A stretch of DNA of 60,355 bases from the IMG/VR virus record IMGVR_UViG_3300046791_000086, positions 1-60,355 of that record; one strand, given 5' to 3'. The first letter of the stretch is position 1, and each line of letters opens with the position of its first letter. The notes beneath the pieces are model-generated. The model did not search any database. It saw only the letters and a program-made list of their open reading frames with translations, and had not been told where the DNA came from. A program made the position numbers and the translations under genes. This DNA comes from a virus. Of the stretch, positions 757 to 12,950 are shown piece by piece.

Positions 757-1092
757 TTACACGACTCTGCTGACAAACTGGTTATCTAGGCATAATGCCT
801 CATATATTTCATCCTTCAAAACGGGATCGCGAGTCTGCACAAGCAAATCCGTCAAGGTGGCCCGAGCCTGGGGGATGAGGTACGGCAGGGCCTTGCGGAC
901 ATACGCTCGCTGGGAAGGGTGCTGCTTACGAAAGGCATTACTTAGCCCCGCGCAGCGCTCGTAGATGGTATTGGCCATTTCCACAGCCACATTCATCACC
1001 ATCTTGTGGCACTGAGTCCGCTTTTCCATGCCGAAGGTCTTTTGCGGCAGGAAAAGACCCGGCGAGCGAAAGTCTTTCTGTGTGTAGGCCAT
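757..1092 (-). CDS. Hypothetical protein (111 aa)
   Basis: ORF track 757..1095. The ATG at 1092 overlaps the stop of the upstream gene (ATGA). Same strand as the head genes. No motif recognised. Confidence 0.55.
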   Translation of the reverse strand: MAYTQKDFRSPGLFLPQKTFGMEKRTQCHKMVMNVAVEMANTIYERCAGLSNAFRKQHPSQRAYVRKALPYLIPQARATLTDLLVQTRDPVLKDEIYEALCLDNQFVSRVV

Positions 1093-3632
1093 CACTTGGG
1101 CTCCTTCTGCATGAGGGCATTGCCAGACGTGCCACCGACTAAGAGGCCAGTCAGGCCGTACTTCTTAATCAGAGACAAAACGTCCGGGTTGAAGATGACA
1201 AAGTTCCTCGTCCGCTGGTCGAAAGGCTGACGAGTTTCGAGGAGATGAATGGCTTGCTCCAAGTGGTCGCCTGGAACATGATACTTTGGATCAAGGTTCT
1301 TCGTAGACTCAATCCGGTATTTCAGTTCCTTGATAGCTCGGCCTACATCTTCTCCCGCAGCGTCGTAGACTCGCGTAGCTGTGTCAAGAGGCTGATCTCC
1401 CTTGCCAACTTCTACACGTGAGCCCTGGTCAAGATACCTGAGCCCTGGGACTCCGGCATCTGCAAGACGCTGCATGTCAGAGGTCTCCCGTGGGGCGAGC
1501 CAACGGCCTTCGCGTGAGGCGACACTGGTAATATATTCAAGTTGTGATTGTGCCCATTCCCGGCTTGCAGGTGGAGCATTTTTTGCCATATCACGCAGGT
1601 AATCGAGATTACTAAGGCGCGGTGGGAGGTCTAAGCCAGCTTTATTAAGGGCCGGAAGTAAGTGCTCCTGACTACCAAGGGGTGCATCGTAATTAATGAA
1701 GGACTTGGGGTCTGCATGAAGGCCAAATTCATACAACTTGCCTTTGCTCTCTACCTTTGGCGCAGCGGCGTGGAGCTTATCTATAGCCTTGTTGAAGTCA
1801 ATCATCGCATTATTACCGGAGACTGAGTATCTAGCTCTATCTACTGCGGTGTGGAAGTCCTCCTTGTTATCTTGCATATGGCTGAGAATTTTGTTGGCAA
1901 AATGTTTTTCCAAGCTATTATCAAAATCCATCTGATCGAGCAGATCTTCAAAATGACCAGTCTGGGCTCTGCCGTTTATAGTCATGGTTGTGTTCGCAGG
2001 AGATAGGGTTCTTTTATACTCTTCTGCAACCTTTCGCTCCTGAGCAGTGTAGAAGCCCTTTCCAAAGGCCGCACCGCCCTCGCCAGTGCCAATCTTGCCC
2101 AAGTCCACGGCGTCAAAATCATGTGGCGAGCCGTGCCAAAGGCTCCCAAACGGGGCCTCGCCAGTGCTAAGCCGCTGCTCTTGACTCGGCCCTGGCCCTG
2201 CGGGGCCAATGTCTCCGGTGCCAGTGTTGTCAGTAAAGACCTCCTCCGGTGGCCGACGCCCGCGGAAGAGTTCATTATCCACCATCTGAAGCTGCGGCGC
2301 GACCCGTTCTGTGAGCCAGGGGTACTTGAGCAGGGCTTGGATTTTGGCGTATTCAGGATTATCAGGCTCAAGATTCGCGAGCCTGCGTTGCAGCGCCAGC
2401 CGGTCCATGGCATTATTGGCCTCGGCCTCTCCCGCGCTCCGTGTATAGCCAAGCTCACCAACAGCCAAGCGCATTCCTTCAACTACGCTCTTCGGAACGC
2501 CAGTCTGTCGATAACCCGCAGCAAGATTCTCGTGCATTTGCCAAGCGGTAGAAGCACGCTGTTTTTCCAAGTCGCTTAGTTGTCCGAAGGGCTTATGGAA
2601 TTTTTCCTCCGCATAGACCTCATACGGCATGGACTCTGTAACAGCATTCATCTTCTCGGTGAAGAGCTTCTGGGCACTTGGGCGCAAGCTCGTAGGCGCG
2701 GCGCCCCCCGCAAAGCCCTCGACGTTCTGGACAGTGTGGCCGACTTCATGAATGGCTGTTGGCAAGCCACTTGCCGTGCCCAGCGTCATTGGGTTGTATG
2801 TGTTCCAGTTACGGCCAGGGTTAAAAGCACCACCGGGGCCTAGTTTATAAGTCAGAGGTATATCTTTTAGCTCCGGGTAGGCTTTGAAAAGCGCATCGTG
2901 CTCAATATAATCCCCAAGCGTCTTAGGCGCAGAATTGGGCATAAGAACGTCTTTTTTGTCTCCAGAGATCGTAGACTGCACAACAGAGTAGTTCTGCGGA
3001 ATTGGCTTCTTTATCTTCGCCCCTTCGTCAGAAATCTCAAACTGCCATGCGGGCTTCGGCTGCTGGTCCCGTGGCAAGCCGAAGGATTCCAGCTGCCGGT
3101 TCTGGATCACCGGGAAGAGCCCCGTCTGGTCGAAGATGTCCTTTACTGGCGCACCCTTCGCCCACATATCATTCGCTAGGGGCTCCATATGGTGCGGATA
3201 AGTGTCTGCCAGCTTGCCGCCAAACGTCCCCCGCTCGTCCATCATCAGCGCGTTGCCAAGGGTCCGAAGCTCAGGCATGGCCTCAGCAATAGGCTTCGCC
3301 GCCCCCGGAACGGCGGAAAGGAGCGTTTGCAAAGCCGCATCGCGGGCGGCAGGCATGTCTCCTTCGCCAAGGCGGGTTATAACGTCCTTTGCATGGAAGG
3401 GGGCCTGTGCGACCACGGCGGGCGTGTAGGACAACGTATTGACAAGGCGGTCAGCCTTGGCCTGTCCCGCGCGGTCATCCCCATACCAGTTCGCTGAGAG
3501 CCAGTTTTTAGCCTGTTCCAGCGCGTCAGGCGTATAAGGCCGCAAGGAGCCAGGGTCTCTGTACTGCGCCCCCGCGAAGAGCCCATTAGGCGGGCTCGGC
3601 GCTTCCCATGGAAACTGAAGAGTGCTGCCCAC
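1092..3632 (-). CDS. Head-module polyvalent protein: HExxH metallopeptidase-like centre plus ADP-ribosyltransferase-like C-terminal region
   Basis: 846-aa ORF with a GTG start overlapping the upstream stop, two genes after portal. AIHEVGHTVQNVEGFAGG (HEVGH at 2736..2750) then YTRSAGEAEANNA. Later WHGSPHDFD..GKGFYTAQERKVAEEY, GVPGLRYLD and NFVIFNPD resemble modules of phage/plasmid polyvalent proteins (recalled, not searched). Confidence 0.55.
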   Translation of the reverse strand: MGSTLQFPWEAPSPPNGLFAGAQYRDPGSLRPYTPDALEQAKNWLSANWYGDDRAGQAKADRLVNTLSYTPAVVAQAPFHAKDVITRLGEGDMPAARDAALQTLLSAVPGAAKPIAEAMPELRTLGNALMMDERGTFGGKLADTYPHHMEPLANDMWAKGAPVKDIFDQTGLFPVIQNRQLESFGLPRDQQPKPAWQFEISDEGAKIKKPIPQNYSVVQSTISGDKKDVLMPNSAPKTLGDYIEHDALFKAYPELKDIPLTYKLGPGGAFNPGRNWNTYNPMTLGTASGLPTAIHEVGHTVQNVEGFAGGAAPTSLRPSAQKLFTEKMNAVTESMPYEVYAEEKFHKPFGQLSDLEKQRASTAWQMHENLAAGYRQTGVPKSVVEGMRLAVGELGYTRSAGEAEANNAMDRLALQRRLANLEPDNPEYAKIQALLKYPWLTERVAPQLQMVDNELFRGRRPPEEVFTDNTGTGDIGPAGPGPSQEQRLSTGEAPFGSLWHGSPHDFDAVDLGKIGTGEGGAAFGKGFYTAQERKVAEEYKRTLSPANTTMTINGRAQTGHFEDLLDQMDFDNSLEKHFANKILSHMQDNKEDFHTAVDRARYSVSGNNAMIDFNKAIDKLHAAAPKVESKGKLYEFGLHADPKSFINYDAPLGSQEHLLPALNKAGLDLPPRLSNLDYLRDMAKNAPPASREWAQSQLEYITSVASREGRWLAPRETSDMQRLADAGVPGLRYLDQGSRVEVGKGDQPLDTATRVYDAAGEDVGRAIKELKYRIESTKNLDPKYHVPGDHLEQAIHLLETRQPFDQRTRNFVIFNPDVLSLIKKYGLTGLLVGGTSGNALMQKEPK

Positions 3633-6226: not shown

Positions 6227-7581
6227 CCTGTGTCTCCTAGAGAAGATGCCAAAGCGCGGCCCAGGTTACGTATCTTCCCGCTGGCGGCTTCAACGAGCGA
6301 AGTGTTAAGATTGGGGTTCCGAGGCTCTTTACTAGCCACAGCGCTGTAGCGGAAAGCGTCCGCGCCGTGAGAGTATTGGTCATGCACTGGGTCTTCGGAC
6401 AAGCGCCCAGTGTTGTCATTTTTCTCATACCTGTAGTGCATTAGGCACTGAAGCCCATCGCGGCACGCGGCTTGGTCGAACCAGGAGTTAGGAAAGACCG
6501 TCCGCGCGGCGTTAATGCCATCGTAGACCCGGAGATTAGGCACAATTCGAGTCCTATAGCCTTTGGCCATGATCTGCTCTCTAACAGAGAGCTTAGTTCC
6601 AACAGTCTTGGACTTGGCGTCATGCGGAAGCCAGACCGTCCCGTAGATGTAACCCATATTCTGCATGTAGGCGAGGTAATGGTCGATGTGGAACTGGGAG
6701 GCCTCGTAGTAGTTAATATACCGGAACTGGAAGTTCGCGTACTGCCTAAACCACATGCTTGTACTATCGGCATGGCCAAGGTCAAAAAATACGTCCACAG
6801 GGAGTTTTCTGTCATAGGGAACCCGACAAATGCGCTCCTCCGCATCAGCGTCCCGAAGTTCTTTAGCGTAGACCGCTCCTTCGAGCATCTTGCGGCATTT
6901 GCCTTCCCAAACCCAGAGGTAAGCATCCAAGTCATTGCGCTTAAGCTCCTCCATTTCGGCCCGAAGGACATCTGGAAACCAGGGGTTATCCCGCCAAGTT
7001 ATGTAAACCACATCACTATTATCACGAGGATGCACCACAAAATGCTGGTAAGTGTAATCAATCTCCAGTTCAGGGTTAAAGCTGATCCAGATTTCACTCG
7101 CTGGCTTACGAATGGTAGGAATGAGTATATTCCAGGAAGTCTTGGTGACTTTGTTAGCTTCTTCCACCCAGCAGATGTCAAAGTCCTCATAGCTTTTGAT
7201 TTTGTCCGTGTTATTGCGGATACCCGCGAATTGAAACTCGCCACCAGTGGCTTTGCAGCGGATTTCGGTGTTGAGTATGTCAAAGAGCCCGGAAAGGCCC
7301 ATTTTTTCAATCTGGCTGGACAAAAGCTTGTGCACAGACTCGGAGATTGAGTTCTGCAACTCTCTGGCGCAGAGCACCCGGAGGGGTTTTTGCAGCATTT
7401 GCAAAATCAGCGCCCGCGCATAGCCCCAGCTCTTCGCGCCGCCCCTGCCGCCGTAGGCGACCTTGTATCTCTTCGCGGAGAACAAAAACTGGAGCTTTGG
7501 CGGAAAGTCCGCGTTCACAGTAAGCGCACCGGGGGCAAGGAGGGAATTATTCATGGAAGATGCTGTCCCAAAGCCGGACAA
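6214..7581 (-). CDS. terL: Terminase large subunit (PBSX/Terminase_3-like)
   Basis: 455 aa. Walker A-like YGGRGGAKSWG. Downstream ICWVEEA and WISFNPE are typical of this family. Start uncertain (TTG 7581 or ATG 7554). Confidence 0.9.
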   Translation of the reverse strand: MSGFGTASSMNNSLLAPGALTVNADFPPKLQFLFSAKRYKVAYGGRGGAKSWGYARALILQMLQKPLRVLCARELQNSISESVHKLLSSQIEKMGLSGLFDILNTEIRCKATGGEFQFAGIRNNTDKIKSYEDFDICWVEEANKVTKTSWNILIPTIRKPASEIWISFNPELEIDYTYQHFVVHPRDNSDVVYITWRDNPWFPDVLRAEMEELKRNDLDAYLWVWEGKCRKMLEGAVYAKELRDADAEERICRVPYDRKLPVDVFFDLGHADSTSMWFRQYANFQFRYINYYEASQFHIDHYLAYMQNMGYIYGTVWLPHDAKSKTVGTKLSVREQIMAKGYRTRIVPNLRVYDGINAARTVFPNSWFDQAACRDGLQCLMHYRYEKNDNTGRLSEDPVHDQYSHGADAFRYSAVASKEPRNPNLNTSLVEAASGKIRNLGRALASSLGDTGWMR

Positions 7582-9305: not shown

Positions 9306-9498
9306 CGCGTTCACTCCTACTGTCGAGAAAAGTGTGAAGCATGTCAGACAGTTCCACACTAGAAACCCTAACCATCTGTGGAGAGCCGACGGCAAAGTTT
9401 TTCTCCTTCGGCTCAAGGAAAAGGGCTGTGTAGAATACGTCATCGAGAGGGTCGTAGTATGGCTGGACTTGTACCAGCTGTAAGGTGGGCCTGGTCAT
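9244..9498 (-). CDS. Hypothetical protein (84 aa)
   Basis: The ATG at 9498 overlaps the stop of 9495..9713 (ATGA). The last ~20 codons look non-protein-like (see finding on the frame switch). Confidence 0.45.
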   Translation of the reverse strand: MTRPTLQLVQVQPYYDPLDDVFYTALFLEPKEKNFAVGSPQMVRVSSVELSDMLHTFLDSRSERGAQKVRSNTGLPRQTGETPG

Positions 9499-9713
9499 GT
9501 GAAGCACGCCTTCACCGCCCACATCGCGGCTTGCTCGTAGTTGGTAATTGCGAGAGACCGACAGCGGTTGTCAGGAACAGAAGCCCGCAGGTAGGAGAAA
9601 ATCTCCTCTGTGAGGGACTTGATCTTGGCCACGCGCTCGTCGTTGGAGGGATTGAAGTTGGGCAGGGTGGAAGGCTGGGCGAGAGAGGCTTTCGGCTCGG
9701 GTTGGTCGTGCAT
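9495..9713 (-). CDS. Hypothetical protein (72 aa)
   Basis: ORF track. AGGAG 6 nt upstream of the ATG at 9713. Confidence 0.6.
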   Translation of the reverse strand: MHDQPEPKASLAQPSTLPNFNPSNDERVAKIKSLTEEIFSYLRASVPDNRCRSLAITNYEQAAMWAVKACFT

Positions 9714-10142: not shown

Positions 10143-10769
10143 TTAGGGCTCGATTACTTCACCCTCAATGGTCTGAGGGTCTGGCTTTTGTCTCTCAGTG
10201 TGCCCGGTGGGCACCGCCGCGAAGTTGATATTAACCTGTATCCCGCCCGGCGCAGTGGGTGGCTCAGTTTTCTCATCTAAGACCTTTATCAACTCCCCGA
10301 TCTCGCGTACTTGGAACTTAGTCGGGTTATCTTCCAGCCTGTCAGCGAGTTCGTCGATAAGGCTCACCATTAGGCTTGCCTTGCGGCCATGAACGTCCAA
10401 GTAAAGCGCGTCTTTCTGCGCCCGGTAGCTTGCGACTAGCTCCTGAAAGTCCGGGCTCTGCTTCAAGACGCTGAGCCTAGAACCTGAGTACCCGGTGATG
10501 GACATAATCTCCACACTCGGGCGGCCTTCGGCTATGAGCCGCGCGGCGGAATGATGTCTGTGGCGCATGGTCTGTATGCTAGGCACGGCGGGCAGGCTCA
10601 GGTGCTTGGGCGGGGAGTCTATGAGCGCCCGGTCCGCCTCGCCCAGGTCTCTGACGTAAAATGCCTCAAAGCTCGCCGGGCGGCCTCGGTTACTTGTAAC
10701 GGCAGAGTCTATGAGGTCTGAAAGCGTTTGGTCCATTGGTCCGATCCCTATTTGGGGCGTGTTGGCCAC
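10143..10769 (-). CDS. First late-arm gene: HTH-containing protein (possible small terminase subunit)
   Basis: 208-aa ORF. GTG at 10769 follows AAGGGAG (alternative ATG at 10736). RHHSAARLIAEGRPSVEIMSITGYSGSRLSVLKQ looks like a helix-turn-helix. The TerS role is inferred from position only. Confidence 0.5.
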   Translation of the reverse strand: MANTPQIGIGPMDQTLSDLIDSAVTSNRGRPASFEAFYVRDLGEADRALIDSPPKHLSLPAVPSIQTMRHRHHSAARLIAEGRPSVEIMSITGYSGSRLSVLKQSPDFQELVASYRAQKDALYLDVHGRKASLMVSLIDELADRLEDNPTKFQVREIGELIKVLDEKTEPPTAPGGIQVNINFAAVPTGHTERQKPDPQTIEGEVIEP

Positions 10770-11115
10770 ATATTGCTCCCTTCGCGCCCCGTGTCAAGGG
10801 AAAGTGAGTCTTTATGCTGCCTATTGTGGGCCTTTAGAGTGACGATTGGATGACTGGCCTTTGCCTTTGGGGCAAAGTGGGCCGAGTGTTTTTTAGAAAA
10901 ACTTCTAATGTGTCATCTGCCATCGCCAGACGGCCCCAGCTCCAAGGCCGGCCACCCCCGGCTTGCAAAGCGCGCCAGCCCGCAAGCGGGAGTTGCAAAG
11001 CGGGAGTCATGCAAGGGGAGCATTGCATTGGGAGCATAGCGACAAGGGGACTGCGAGGCAAAGCACCATAGGAAGATAAGGATAAGGACTCTATGCCCAC
11101 GCCGGCCATGGATTA

Positions 11116-11150
11116 TAGGACTCCATGCACAGGTATCACATGGAGTCCTA
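11116..11150. repeat. Perfect 12-bp inverted repeat TAGGACTCCATG-N11-CATGGAGTCCTA
   Basis: Read directly: arms at 11116..11127 and 11139..11150. Further TAGGACTC copies at 11155..11164 and (ATAAGGACTC) 11082..11091. Confidence 0.9.
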
Positions 11151-11279
11151 AAGGTATAGGACTCTAGTGAAAAACCATAGGAATACAACGCAATTCACGA
11201 GTCCCATAGGAAAACACGGCGGACATAGGAACACCGATTGCCGGGCCTTGCATGGGTGCTACACGGCGAGTCTGTTTGG

Positions 11280-11294
11280 CATGGTATTGCCCTA
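11280..11294 (+). promoter_or_regulatory. CATGGTATTGCCCTA box (extended -10-like TGgTATTGC)
   Basis: 15-mer identical to 24005..24019. The TGGTATTG core also occurs at 13795 (+) and 59790 (-). About 520 nt upstream of the first early ORF. Confidence 0.35.
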
Positions 11295-11304
11295 CCGGGT
11301 GCTC

Positions 11305-11538
11305 GCGGCAATGGCACCCACGGGCGCGCTATGGGCGAAAGAGAACAAACAGGGGACTCGCCGCGACGCAACGGAAAGGGGAGTCCGATTGACGCAGGGT
11401 CAAGGCAGTATGTACAAACAAACGACTCCCACATCGCACCATGCCAAACAGATCGGCCACGCCGTGACGCCCCATGGCACCCGGTGCACCCGGCACCCAT
11501 CGCACCCGGCGTTGCGGCAATGGCACCCACGGGCGCGC
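11305..11538 (+). repeat. Exact 25-bp direct repeat pair GCGGCAATGGCACCCACGGGCGCGC, within a GGCACCCA iteron cluster
   Basis: Copies at 11305..11329 and 11514..11538. GGCACCCA also at 11492, 11567 and 11580, all in the same orientation. Confidence 0.9.
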
Positions 11539-11803
11539 GTTGCCACGGCAATGGCCCATTGCGACCGGCACCCATGATCGGCACCCATCGCCTCACAATG
11601 GGCCAAACGCTGCGTTTAAGTTTATTTTTGGGAGCCTCTTGCAATCGCCCACCTATGGGCTTATGTCTTTCGTTGTGGCGCCGTTCTTTTCGCCCGGTAA
11701 TCGCCCGCCCGTCTTTGCGGACTCGCTGTTTCACATCGTAAACCGATTGGACTCCCGCGCGGCAATGCCACGCCGGGTTCAATCAACATGAGAGGACTAG
11801 ACA

Positions 11804-12448
11804 ATGGCTAAGGACATGACAAACGAAAGCGCAATGGAGTTTTTGGGCTTAACCTTGAAGGACATCGCGCTTGTGACGGCCATGCGGGAATATACGTCAA
11901 CGCACCAAGGGTTCACATATGACTATGATGCAATGACTCCCAAAAACATTCCGTGGTTCTTTGATATGGGCCACAAACAAGGACTCGGTGACGTTGCCAC
12001 GACATCGCGGCCACCGATTGTCGGGTTCACAAAGGATGGCGGCATTCCGTCAACTTTGTGGAAAGATGAAAAGCGCACCAAAGAGGCAAAACGACTCGGT
12101 TTTACCGATTGGCGCGATACACCTGACAATCGTGCGACCCTTGCCGACGCTTGGATAAAAGACGCGCTCCAAGGCAAATGGACTCGCATACTTGACGGCG
12201 AATTGACGGTGAACGAGTCCGGCACCCGTGGGGATAAGATCACCACATATATTCGCGACAAGGCCAAGGAGTTAGTGACGGTGCGTATCAAGAAAGAAAA
12301 CGACTCCAAACCGAAAGCGCAACGTGTGGCAATCCCCACGGGCGCGGTAATGAAAGGACTCGTTGACGCTTGGATTGCCGCCAATCCTGCCACGGTGGAA
12401 AAAATCAGGGCACTCGCTGAAATGGACGTTGCACTAAACGCCGACTAG
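11804..12448 (+). CDS. First early protein, unknown function (214 aa)
   Basis: ORF track. GAGAGGA upstream. Followed by a canonical terminator. Confidence 0.75.
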   Translation: MAKDMTNESAMEFLGLTLKDIALVTAMREYTSTHQGFTYDYDAMTPKNIPWFFDMGHKQGLGDVATTSRPPIVGFTKDGGIPSTLWKDEKRTKEAKRLGFTDWRDTPDNRATLADAWIKDALQGKWTRILDGELTVNESGTRGDKITTYIRDKAKELVTVRIKKENDSKPKAQRVAIPTGAVMKGLVDAWIAANPATVEKIRALAEMDVALNAD

Positions 12449-12460
12449 ACAAACACAGAG

Positions 12461-12503
12461 CCCAAAGGGACGTAAAACTCCCTTTGGGCTCTTTTGCGTT
12501 TTT
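12461..12503 (+). terminator. Rho-independent terminator
   Basis: 10-bp stem CCCAAAGGGA / TCCCTTTGGG (12461..12470 / 12479..12488), 8-nt loop, then CTCTTTTGCGTTTTT. Confidence 0.7.
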
Positions 12504-12757
12504 GCCCCGGCCCGAAGGGCTCCGGCGCCTCTGACTAGCGCTGTACGCCTCGGCCCCTTGGAGCCAGCCCAGTAAGCCTCGGCCCCAGAGAATTGAAATC
12601 ATTAGGTTTTAATATTGGCCTAGCATATTGGCCTGCAATGCTGGAGGGTTTTATATGGACACATTATAGAGCCCATACCGCAAACACAATGGGCCGCATG
12701 GATAAGGAATGATGGGCTCAGGACTCCAATTTTTCACTGCCAGAAATCAGAGTCTGG

Positions 12758-12780
12758 TTTTTTTTTTTTTTTTTTTTTTT
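12758..12780 (+). repeat. T23 homopolymer tract
   Basis: Counted directly: 23 consecutive T, followed by AT-rich AATATACATATTAAAAA. Lies in a 502-bp ORF-free gap. Confidence 0.95.
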
Positions 12781-12950
12781 AATATACATATTAAAAACTC
12801 GGCCCACCTCGCTTCGCTTGGGGGTCCAGCACTAAGCCCATCACACCCAGCATCTACGTCATAGGTGTGGGGTTTATAATGTGTTCATATGGCACCCGCC
12901 AACATCATATGCCATTGTATGCCGTCAACATCCACAGGAGCCACCCAGCC

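Follow-up and report, generated by a model that had tools for sequence, protein, structure and literature searches.

A repeat-rich non-coding hub between the divergent arms of an uncultured phage: a probable control region with a putative rRNA-leader-type boxA

What occupies about 1 kb of phage DNA that lies between the divergent late and early arms and appears to hold no gene? The question is raised by the window analyzed here, the whole of a 60,355-nt stretch of viral DNA (IMG/VR record IMGVR_UViG_3300046791_000086), in which a hub separates the first late gene on the minus strand from the first early gene on the plus strand. A previous sequence-only reading placed this hub at 10770-11803, described it as free of open reading frames (ORFs) and rich in short repeats, and proposed that a long structured leader, starting from an extended -10-like box at 11280 about 520 nt upstream of the first early ORF, or else a non-coding RNA might cover the repeats. 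After comparison with related phages we consider it somewhat probable (roughly 55%) that the hub is a phage non-coding control region of three modules, which acts at the level of DNA and, on the right-hand side, also by means of a short leader RNA. Taken as a whole, the hub is a familiar kind of phage control region, found here in a lineage without cultured members, and the main new result would be the leader, which appears to mimic the boxA of host ribosomal RNA (rrn) operons.

The hub is defined as follows:

10737 to 11803: hub, non-coding, between the TerS-like gene p208 (10143-10736, minus strand) and the first early gene p214 (11804-12448, plus strand)

For the left gene, gene callers give a protein of 197 residues from ATG at 10736 and not from GTG at 10769, a position overlapped by the -10 hexamer of a conserved leftward promoter; the start is most likely ATG 10736, and the hub therefore extends over 10737-11803. 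The gap and its location between the late and early arms are thus borne out, with its left limit displaced from 10770. The hub is non-coding. All ten ORFs within it gave negative codon log-odds (-0.05 to -0.47), as against +0.08 to +0.43 for flanking and other real genes [note that these positive controls include short flanking genes left out of training], and tblastn gave no match to the hub ORFs in the relatives, whereas the flanking proteins do match there. A small or unusual protein-coding gene could nevertheless be hidden in the hub, for instance the 167-aa ORF at 11238-11741, which was predicted as a gene by a public caller on a Logan contig, and the hubs of two relatives (L004 and L249) do contain inserted small genes. 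This ORF, however, has no homolog among 1.84 billion representative proteins and no preceding ribosome-binding site, and the hub ORFs overlap each other in several frames; with the negative codon scores and the empty tblastn searches, a hidden gene is very improbable and the description as ORF-free holds.

GenBank phages gave neither a DNA match to the window nor a tblastn match with either hub-flanking protein. Single-protein scans of IMG/VR were without result, and a scan with the family alignment gave 47 more distant relatives. Close relatives sharing the divergent layout were reached through homologs of the left-flanking protein (loci L002, L003, L004/5, L006/7, L249 and L251) or through a DNA pattern for the leader block (L064). 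The order of TerS-like gene, hub and first early gene is common to eight related uncultured phages, the hub varying from 491 to 1412 bp among the relatives, and in three alignments (A2, A3 and A4) its alignable part is confined to its two ends. The comparison with close relatives, proposed in the sequence-only reading as a test that could refute it, revealed conservation of DNA elements and not of codons.

At the right end, three elements were identified:

11612 to 11667, plus strand: predicted early promoter P_E1, with UP-like A/T stretch TTTAAGTTTATTTTT, -35 hexamer TTGCAA (11639-11644), 17-nt spacer and -10 hexamer TATGTC (11662-11667)
11724 to 11743, plus strand: putative rrn-leader-type boxA block, CGCTGTTTCACATCGTAAAC, in the p214 leader
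11757 to 11773, plus strand: small hairpin or inverted repeat, GCGCGGCAATGCCACGC, with GGCAAT(AAC) loop, 30-45 nt upstream of the start codon

The block ATTATTTT..GAGCCTCTTGmAA together with a TATGTy-type hexamer is conserved in seven of the eight phages (A2 and A4), and the conserved TTGmAA-N17-TATGTy sits, also in seven of eight, 45-57 nt upstream of the boxA block. The leader from the -10 hexamer to ATG measures 110-114 nt in the relatives and 136 nt in the window. Within it, CGCTnnTTnACATyGTnAAC forms the most invariant stretch of the hub (A2 and A4 columns), and GGCAAT of the small hairpin is conserved in A2/A4; RNAalifold gave pairs 95-112, 96-111 and 97-110 with two to three pair-keeping double changes among seven sequences, which is weak overall.

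The invariant leader block matches an element of bacterial rrn and tRNA-operon leaders. With the alphaproteobacterial consensus element CGCTCTTTGACATCGTGAAC the window agrees at 17 of 20 positions and its relatives at 15-18. The bacterial copies were collected by an exact-pattern genome scan, which gave many Alphaproteobacteria, and then placed relative to rRNA and tRNA genes by Rfam; exact-pattern scans with the leader block yield mostly chance matches, the bacterial ones being informative only after this placement, and L064 alone among the matches also encodes the marker protein. At seven loci (L192, L171, L208, L236, L140, L224 and L144), including both sampled rrn operons of the complete Caenispirillum salinarum chromosome, the element stands in the same orientation as the 16S rRNA, 130-220 nt upstream of its 5' end, and it precedes tRNA clusters at four others (L207, L248, L163 and L150). 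The core of the element, GCTCTTTGACA, constitutes boxA in rrn leaders. The rrn boxA of E. coli reads UGCUCUUUA(ACAA) and that of lambda nutR cgcucuuacacauucca (PMC2724277), and the core GCU.UUU.ACA of the E. coli rrn boxA (UGCUCUUUAACAA) and of nutR is shared with the window; to the gamma-proteobacterial consensus GYTCTTTAANA (PMC5725501) the window conforms at 9 of 11 positions, the probable host being alphaproteobacterial. A hairpin directly precedes the block at several bacterial loci and in most of the phage relatives, as in the boxB-boxA order of rrn leaders. From these matches we take the leader block to be an rrn-leader boxA-type antiterminator, apparently copied from the host element.

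Processive antitermination through boxA is textbook knowledge for lambda and for rRNA operons, and both the rrn leader (boxB hairpin - boxA - boxC) and lambda nut are served by the host factors NusB/NusE/NusA/NusG; to our knowledge, it has been studied almost solely in enterobacteria and lambdoid phages. The right module of the hub (11612-11803) would accordingly be composed of a strong early promoter and a leader of about 130 nt with boxA, followed by p214 and a terminator; host NusB/NusE and other Nus factors would load on the boxA RNA and enable early transcription to withstand termination. The order of promoter, boxA leader, first early gene and terminator is that of lambda pL-nutL-N-tL1. 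The two systems differ in that the hairpin followed by boxA is the rrn order, while lambda has boxA-spacer-boxB, in that boxA position 4 is not C and the host group is another, and in that no arginine-rich N-like protein is evident here, p214 being without the arginine-rich N-terminus expected for an N protein of the lambda nut type. Where a lambda nut site has its boxB hairpin, downstream of boxA, the window has the small hairpin at 11757-11773 with its weak covariation.

The protein encoded after this leader, p214, has more than 300 metagenomic family members, mostly of about 150 residues, all-alpha and of no known fold, and p214 homologs occupy the first early position in L031, L054 and L064, the relatives examined. 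Directly after p214 lies a strong intrinsic terminator (12457-12492) with a 14-bp stem and a T-run, and a terminator follows the p214-homologous gene in every close relative; p214 therefore forms a one-gene unit between two non-coding regions. An N-like part played by p214 would be hypothetical only.

If the leader is what it seems, a near-exact alphaproteobacterial rrn-leader element stands in the first early transcript of an unrelated, uncultured phage lineage. It would then provide a host clue from sequence only for a phage group without cultured member, predict a dependence of these phages on host Nus factors, and offer a simple, testable case of a phage borrowing the transcription signals of host rRNA.

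Related elements were observed elsewhere. Inside the large terminase gene, at 7277-7288 on the minus strand, which is the sense strand of the late operon, lies GCTCTTTGACAT, an exact 12-mer of the alphaproteobacterial boxA core, for which about 0.007 occurrences are expected by chance in the genome; it may serve as an internal signal for antitermination or be coincidental. CGCTGTTTGACATyGTnAAC is also present in IMG/VR contigs L070, L077 and L083, none of which yielded the marker protein; it comes right after a clear hairpin in L083 and after a TTGACA-N17-TATACT promoter in L070, and alphaproteobacterial phages may commonly borrow leaders of the rrn type. The Hyphomicrobiales rrn loci L192, L171 and L236 carry putative promoters with an A/T-rich stretch, CTTGACA, a 17-nt spacer and CTATAA, and GATGGGCC within their spacer recalls the rTGGGCy boxes at the left end of the phage hub and CCTATGGGC in the P_E1 spacer.

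Upstream of P_E1 the hub is filled with repeats. Direct 7-mer pairs number 184, as compared with 68.7 +/- 25.5 in equally long stretches elsewhere in the genome and 52.7 +/- 12.1 in Markov-1 simulations, and inverted 7-mer pairs number 115 against 51.7 +/- 11.0, the maximum of the genome. The hub repeats exceed chance and the hub is the most repeat-rich stretch of the genome, in agreement with the density previously reported. All of the sequence details listed in the sequence-only reading were found in place, the repeats included: TTGCAAAGCG at 10963 and 10993, flanking CCCGCAAGCGGG (10979-10990), and GGGAGCAT at 11016 and 11030. A further repeat, CATAGGAA, is present in four copies in the hub. 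The repeats are arranged in three arrays and one bracketed segment:

10963 to 11045, plus strand: array A, five to six TGCAArG-GGGAGC(AT) units (TGCAArG-GGGAGCAT) with a period of 14-17 nt
11064 to 11235, plus strand: array B, eight ATA(A)GGA units, several of them fused to GACTC
11271 to 11452, no strand assigned: segment bracketed by a perfect 15-nt inverted repeat, TCTGTTTGGCATGGT / ACCATGCCAAACAGA (11271/11438)
11476 to 11592, plus strand: array C, five GGCACCC units, GGCAATG units and the second copy of a 25-mer

Tandem Repeats Finder detected a period of 14 at 11010-11037 in array A, and L251 carries a GGGAGCA array in the matching position. The AGGACTC copies of array B include a perfect 12-bp palindrome (11116-11127/11139-11150). 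By self-BLAST, the exact 25-mer GCGGCAATGGCACCCACGGGCGCGC occurs twice, at 11305-11329 within the bracketed segment and at 11514-11538 within array C. GGCACCC is found six times in the hub, five times in array C and once at 11313, and never on the minus strand; the unit GCACCCATGAT of array C recurs in L003, where it likewise stands upstream of the early promoter at the corresponding position. All the units of arrays A, B and C lie on the strand of the early genes. The central arrays cannot be aligned across relatives, yet the cores ATAGG, CCATG and GGGCA are held in common, and ATAGG is the most enriched 5-mer over the relatives' hubs (29 against 3.5 expected, with a strand bias of 29:14, in six of seven hubs). 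L004 carries an array of its own, three 17-mers at 36-bp spacing. In L006/L007 the hub is only 491 bp long and the arrays are absent, and the arrays are therefore accessory.

Are these arrays transcribed, as the idea of a leader or an RNA over the repeats supposes? The box at 11280 lacks both conservation and a -35 partner, and its reading as a promoter is unsupported. The sole conserved rightward promoter, 11639-11667, lies downstream of the arrays, and neither the promoter scan nor inspection of alignment A3 gave a conserved rightward promoter upstream of them, so that neither a leader of about 520 nt from 11280 nor an RNA over the repeats is supported. What survives of the proposal is a functional leader, predicted to be about 130 nt long (11675-11803) and to contain the boxA core; the long, structured form over the repeats does not. 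Rfam 15, a check that the sequence-only reading had recommended for non-coding RNA, gave no match at gathering thresholds and none on the hub alone at E<=5. The recommended covariation check was no more favorable to a large structure in the leader, for which RNAalifold gave only -4.0 kcal/mol. Folding was better than that of shuffled sequences on both strands (z -3.7 and -4.4); an excess on two strands is what inverted repeats in DNA give, and it therefore does not point to RNA.

Some properties of the arrays nonetheless suit a transcript, whether as a long leader or as a separate plus-strand non-coding RNA, and in particular either an AGGA/GGA sponge for a CsrA/RsmA-like regulator or for ribosomes, or a purine-rich R-loop primer of the kind of c2 PE1-T. 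The strand bias of the units is one; others are a purine-rich block (60-76% purine) that follows a GC-rich hairpin at the start of the array zone in the window, L002, L251 and L004, and the resemblance of the array B units to the ribosome-binding site that the phage itself uses (AGGACTC...ATG). The sponge is disfavored by the rarity of CsrA in Alphaproteobacteria. The models of CsrB/RsmY/RsmZ-type sponges in Rfam 15 gave no match, and the enrichment in GGA and Shine-Dalgarno (SD)-like motifs is modest and not conserved in relatives: SD-like 4-mers amount to 16.9/kb in the hub and 11.9/kb genome-wide, and are not enriched in L003 (3.0/kb) or L249. As for the primer, the c2-type origin, in the same early/late intergenic setting, does use a non-coding transcript (PMC7150918). 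Direct iterons in DNA would, however, yield the identical strand bias, and with neither a conserved rightward promoter upstream nor a conserved terminator downstream, no Rfam match even at E<=5 and an equal folding excess on both strands, we regard transcription of the arrays, in all these versions taken jointly, as unlikely.

We read the central arrays instead as accessory, oriented protein-binding sites (iterons). The opposite view, that they are a fast-evolving spacer without function, produced by slippage, duplication and the insertion or loss of morons between promoters that need separation, draws on the variation among the hubs. Their length ranges over 491-1412 bp and L006/L007 lack arrays; L004 (1955-2400) and L249 (2566-2724) carry one or two small ORFs of late orientation inserted in the hub, the two of L004 sharing an identical 16-nt ribosome-binding/start sequence and that of L249 being followed by a perfect 16-bp hairpin, so that the hub appears to be a gene-insertion hotspot. 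Furthermore, a 16-nt inverted repeat (15 of 16 complementary; AGCGTTTGGTCCATTG / CAATGGGCCAAACGCT) brackets the hub at 10723-10738 / 11596-11611, of which the left arm holds the p208 start codon and the right arm reads as a duplicated start (MGQTL vs MDQTL), that is, an inverted duplicate of a p208-start-like fragment. Against a neutral spacer stand the strong size pressure on phage genomes, the strict co-orientation of the units, the recurrence of ATAGG (29 vs 3.5), GGGCA and CATGG, with a strand bias in common, in six of seven hubs that diverged independently, and the copies of hub motifs in a dyad beyond p214 described below. A spacer without function is, on this balance, rather improbable; were it true, the finding would shrink to an ordinary, well-annotated intergenic control region.

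Three other explanations of the repeats were considered and rejected. The window hub has 13 GANTC sites, the site of CcrM (12.2/kb, against 3.0/kb genome-wide), but they cluster because GANTC belongs to the AGGACTC repeat unit, and the relatives' hubs are not enriched; the phage ParB-methylase gave no match to the solved CcrM structure. A promoter cluster was suggested by nine relaxed -35/-10 pairs in the hub against about 3/kb genome-wide, but the ATAGG units have no -35 partners. Promoters for a phage RNA polymerase were considered from the resemblance of TATAGGGAGA, but a gene for such a polymerase was not found. Inspection by eye, no formal scan being made, gave no convincing match to the DnaA, CtrA, LexA, IHF or parS consensus.

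As iterons, the arrays of the central module (10963-11610) would either tune the two promoters or cooperate with the dyad beyond p214, and we lean toward the link with an origin. Origins of the iteron type have at least three direct repeats of about 17-22 bp, regularly spaced, beside an AT-rich unwinding element and usually an initiator gene. The hub has co-oriented direct repeats, of shorter and irregularly spaced units; the nearest strong A/T element is a T23 tract (12758-12780), and no recognizable initiator gene adjoins the hub. This tract lies in a second non-coding stretch, after p214 and its terminator, about 1 kb downstream of the hub, and forms the exact center of a 286-bp imperfect palindrome, 12629-12914, with complementarity of 75% over 51-nt arms and 92% over 12-nt arms. 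The same design recurs in the family. Of the 60 rows scanned, a few of them duplicates of one locus, 38 have a T-run of at least 10 nt (up to 27) at 0.4-3.5 kb upstream of the marker gene, and the runs lie on the early-gene strand with one exception. At about 15 loci exact inverted repeats of 11-32 nt are placed roughly equidistant from the T-run, a length almost never reached in shuffled controls. In some distant relatives (L031, L054 and L020) the T-run element belongs to the hub itself, with the TerS-like gene on one side and the first early gene on the other, and several contigs break at the T-run. Four hub motifs are present in the dyad of the window as single plus-strand copies (4 vs 0.73 expected, P=0.007).

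These features make the dyad 12629-12914 the best candidate for a core origin, in which an unwinding element would lie between inverted initiator sites, a layout that resembles, by analogy, the origins used with superfamily 3 (SF3)-type helicases. We found nothing relevant in the literature on T-tract origins in phages. GC skew was discarded as an origin sign: its cumulative maximum at 10-11 kb coincides with the gene-strand switch and is therefore uninformative. The repeat arrays and the family-wide T-tract dyad offer concrete targets for mapping the origin and the early/late switch.

Among known systems, the hub is close in layout to the origin of the lactococcal c2-type phages (Ceduovirus): in both, a non-coding, ORF-free region lies between divergent early and late clusters with early promoters at its bounds, and in both it varies more than any other part of genomes that are otherwise conserved. 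The two regions are not similar in sequence; the origin function of c2 was shown by plasmid replication while here an origin is a candidate only, and the origin-like dyad lies 0.85 kb outside the hub, beyond the first early gene. A short non-coding transcript from PE1 is implicated in the start of replication in c2 (PMC7150918). Two eukaryotic viruses also offer analogies. The dyad-symmetric origin oriS of herpes simplex virus (HSV) is comparable to the family design of inverted repeats, T-tract and inverted repeats, and the non-coding control region of polyomaviruses has divergent early and late promoters, repeated motifs and an A/T tract in a dyad (for an overview see PMC7762344). With eukaryotic hosts and unrelated proteins, the analogy is one of layout only.

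The left end of the hub contains three elements:

10769 to 10797, minus strand: predicted leftward sigma-70-type promoter P_L, with -35 hexamer TTGACA (10797-10792), 17-nt spacer and -10 hexamer AATATG (10774-10769)
10820 to 10900, no strand assigned: conserved left block, with two rTGGGCy boxes (CTATTGTGGGCC at 10822 and AAGTGGGCCGAG at 10875), GCCTTT/AAAGGC repeats and a T-run
10946 to 10963, no strand assigned: GC-rich hairpin or inverted repeat, GGCCGGCCACCCCCGGCT, at the start of the purine-rich array zone, with the A3 columns GGCC.G.C.CC invariant

An equivalent of P_L was found at the same place in seven relatives, with TTGACA, TTGCAA, TTGACT or TTGCCA followed 16-17 nt on by a T-A-rich hexamer. 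TGGGC and its flanks are invariant columns in A3, and a homolog of the left block, GAGyATyrTGGGCyTrA...TTTTT, is present in L002, L003, L004, L006, L249 and L251; L002 carries in addition an inverted copy of it 310 nt away, across the array. The GC-rich hairpin has a compensatory variant in L006 (GCCAG...CTGGC, as against GCCGG...CCGGC in the window). The rTGGGCy boxes, the AAGGC repeats and this hairpin are the likeliest sites for a conserved protein. Within the left module (10737-10963), the leftward promoter would drive the TerS-like helix-turn-helix (HTH) gene and the packaging and late arm.

Could the hub, or its left half, be a packaging site (pac)? In SPP1, pac overlaps the PL1/PL2 promoters, a ribosome-binding site and the 5' end of gene 1 (PMC6316719), and an oligomeric small terminase encoded by the adjacent gene would here likewise bind repeated sites upstream of and overlapping its own promoter. 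The 197-residue p208 has an almost invariant HTH followed by a 42-residue helix, heads the arm with TerL (Terminase_3) and the P22-type portal, and adjoins conserved boxes at its promoter, a likeness to the terminase sites that lie over late promoters and a gene 5' end in SPP1 (PMC6316719). It gave weak matches to BFVD proteins named small terminase, and 3 of 11 members of its family matched phrog_16503 'terminase' (best E 0.0034). The window protein itself gave no Pfam or PHROG hit and no significant PDB fold match, and 3-9 small genes separate it from TerL. The identification of p208 as TerS is thus weakly supported, and the SPP1 pac is much shorter than the hub. Moreover, variable central arrays are ill-matched to a conserved HTH, and pac would perhaps cover the left block, leaving the arrays and the right edge without explanation. 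For the hub or its left half, pac is an unlikely identity; if p208 is TerS, the left boxes might serve additionally for packaging (pac) or autoregulation, as SPP1 illustrates (PMC6316719).

The reading of the hub as a control region of three modules is to be weighed against several points, all of which count against it. The promoters, transcription start sites and leader are predictions. At boxA position 4, where C is present and functionally important in E. coli, the phages have G, T or A [note that the G of the window is also found in verified Hyphomicrobiales rrn leaders], and the hairpin upstream of boxA in the window is weak (z +0.67). Complexes of the rrn type are known mainly to counter Rho-dependent termination, and a further factor may be required for reading through the strong intrinsic terminator that follows p214; p214 itself gave no Pfam or PHROG hit, no significant PDB match and no RNA-binding motif. 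The array units, of 7-16 nt and irregularly spaced, are unlike classical iterons of 17-22 bp, and the analysis pointed to no protein that would bind them. The hub is 57% GC, not AT-rich, with only a 15-nt A/T stretch, and its link with the dyad consists of four motif copies.

A bolder form of this reading is possible but doubtful. By it, a large, uncultured alphaproteobacterial phage family would run its early program by imitation of an rRNA operon, with a binding-site array, an A/T stretch, a strong promoter, a hairpin-boxA leader and host antitermination without an N-type protein, and the T-tract dyad would be a new type of origin, coupled to the arrays through the shared motifs.

The window itself is a phage genome. 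A terminal overlap of 127 bp indicates a circular assembly, of about 60.2 kb. The minus-strand arm encodes a P22-type portal and a large terminase (Terminase_3), and the plus-strand arm encodes UvrD, a PD-(D/E)XK nuclease, a ParB-methylase, a UDG-exonuclease, PolA and a DUF3987 protein; tRNA genes, known RNA families and a phage RNA polymerase gene were looked for in the window and none was found. The host is probably an alphaproteobacterium: the closest cultured PolA is that of Caulobacter phage Kuura (41% identity), and the tail protein bears DUF2793, a host hint. Over the whole window GAWTC is depleted about five-fold (18 sites) and GASTC is common (166 sites), a pattern suggesting that the phage avoids the target of a GAWTC-specific restriction system of its host. 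A 72-aa protein encoded close to where the late arm begins (9495-9713, minus strand), with a match to the Acb2/Tad1 hairpin domain that exceeds the Pfam cut-off (E 3.5e-12), is probably an anti-CBASS/anti-Thoeris signal sponge. Beside the portal (1092-3632, minus strand), an 846-aa protein with weak, sub-threshold matches to polyvalent-protein domains (LPD23, ADP-ribosyltransferase) may be an ejected or virion-associated effector.

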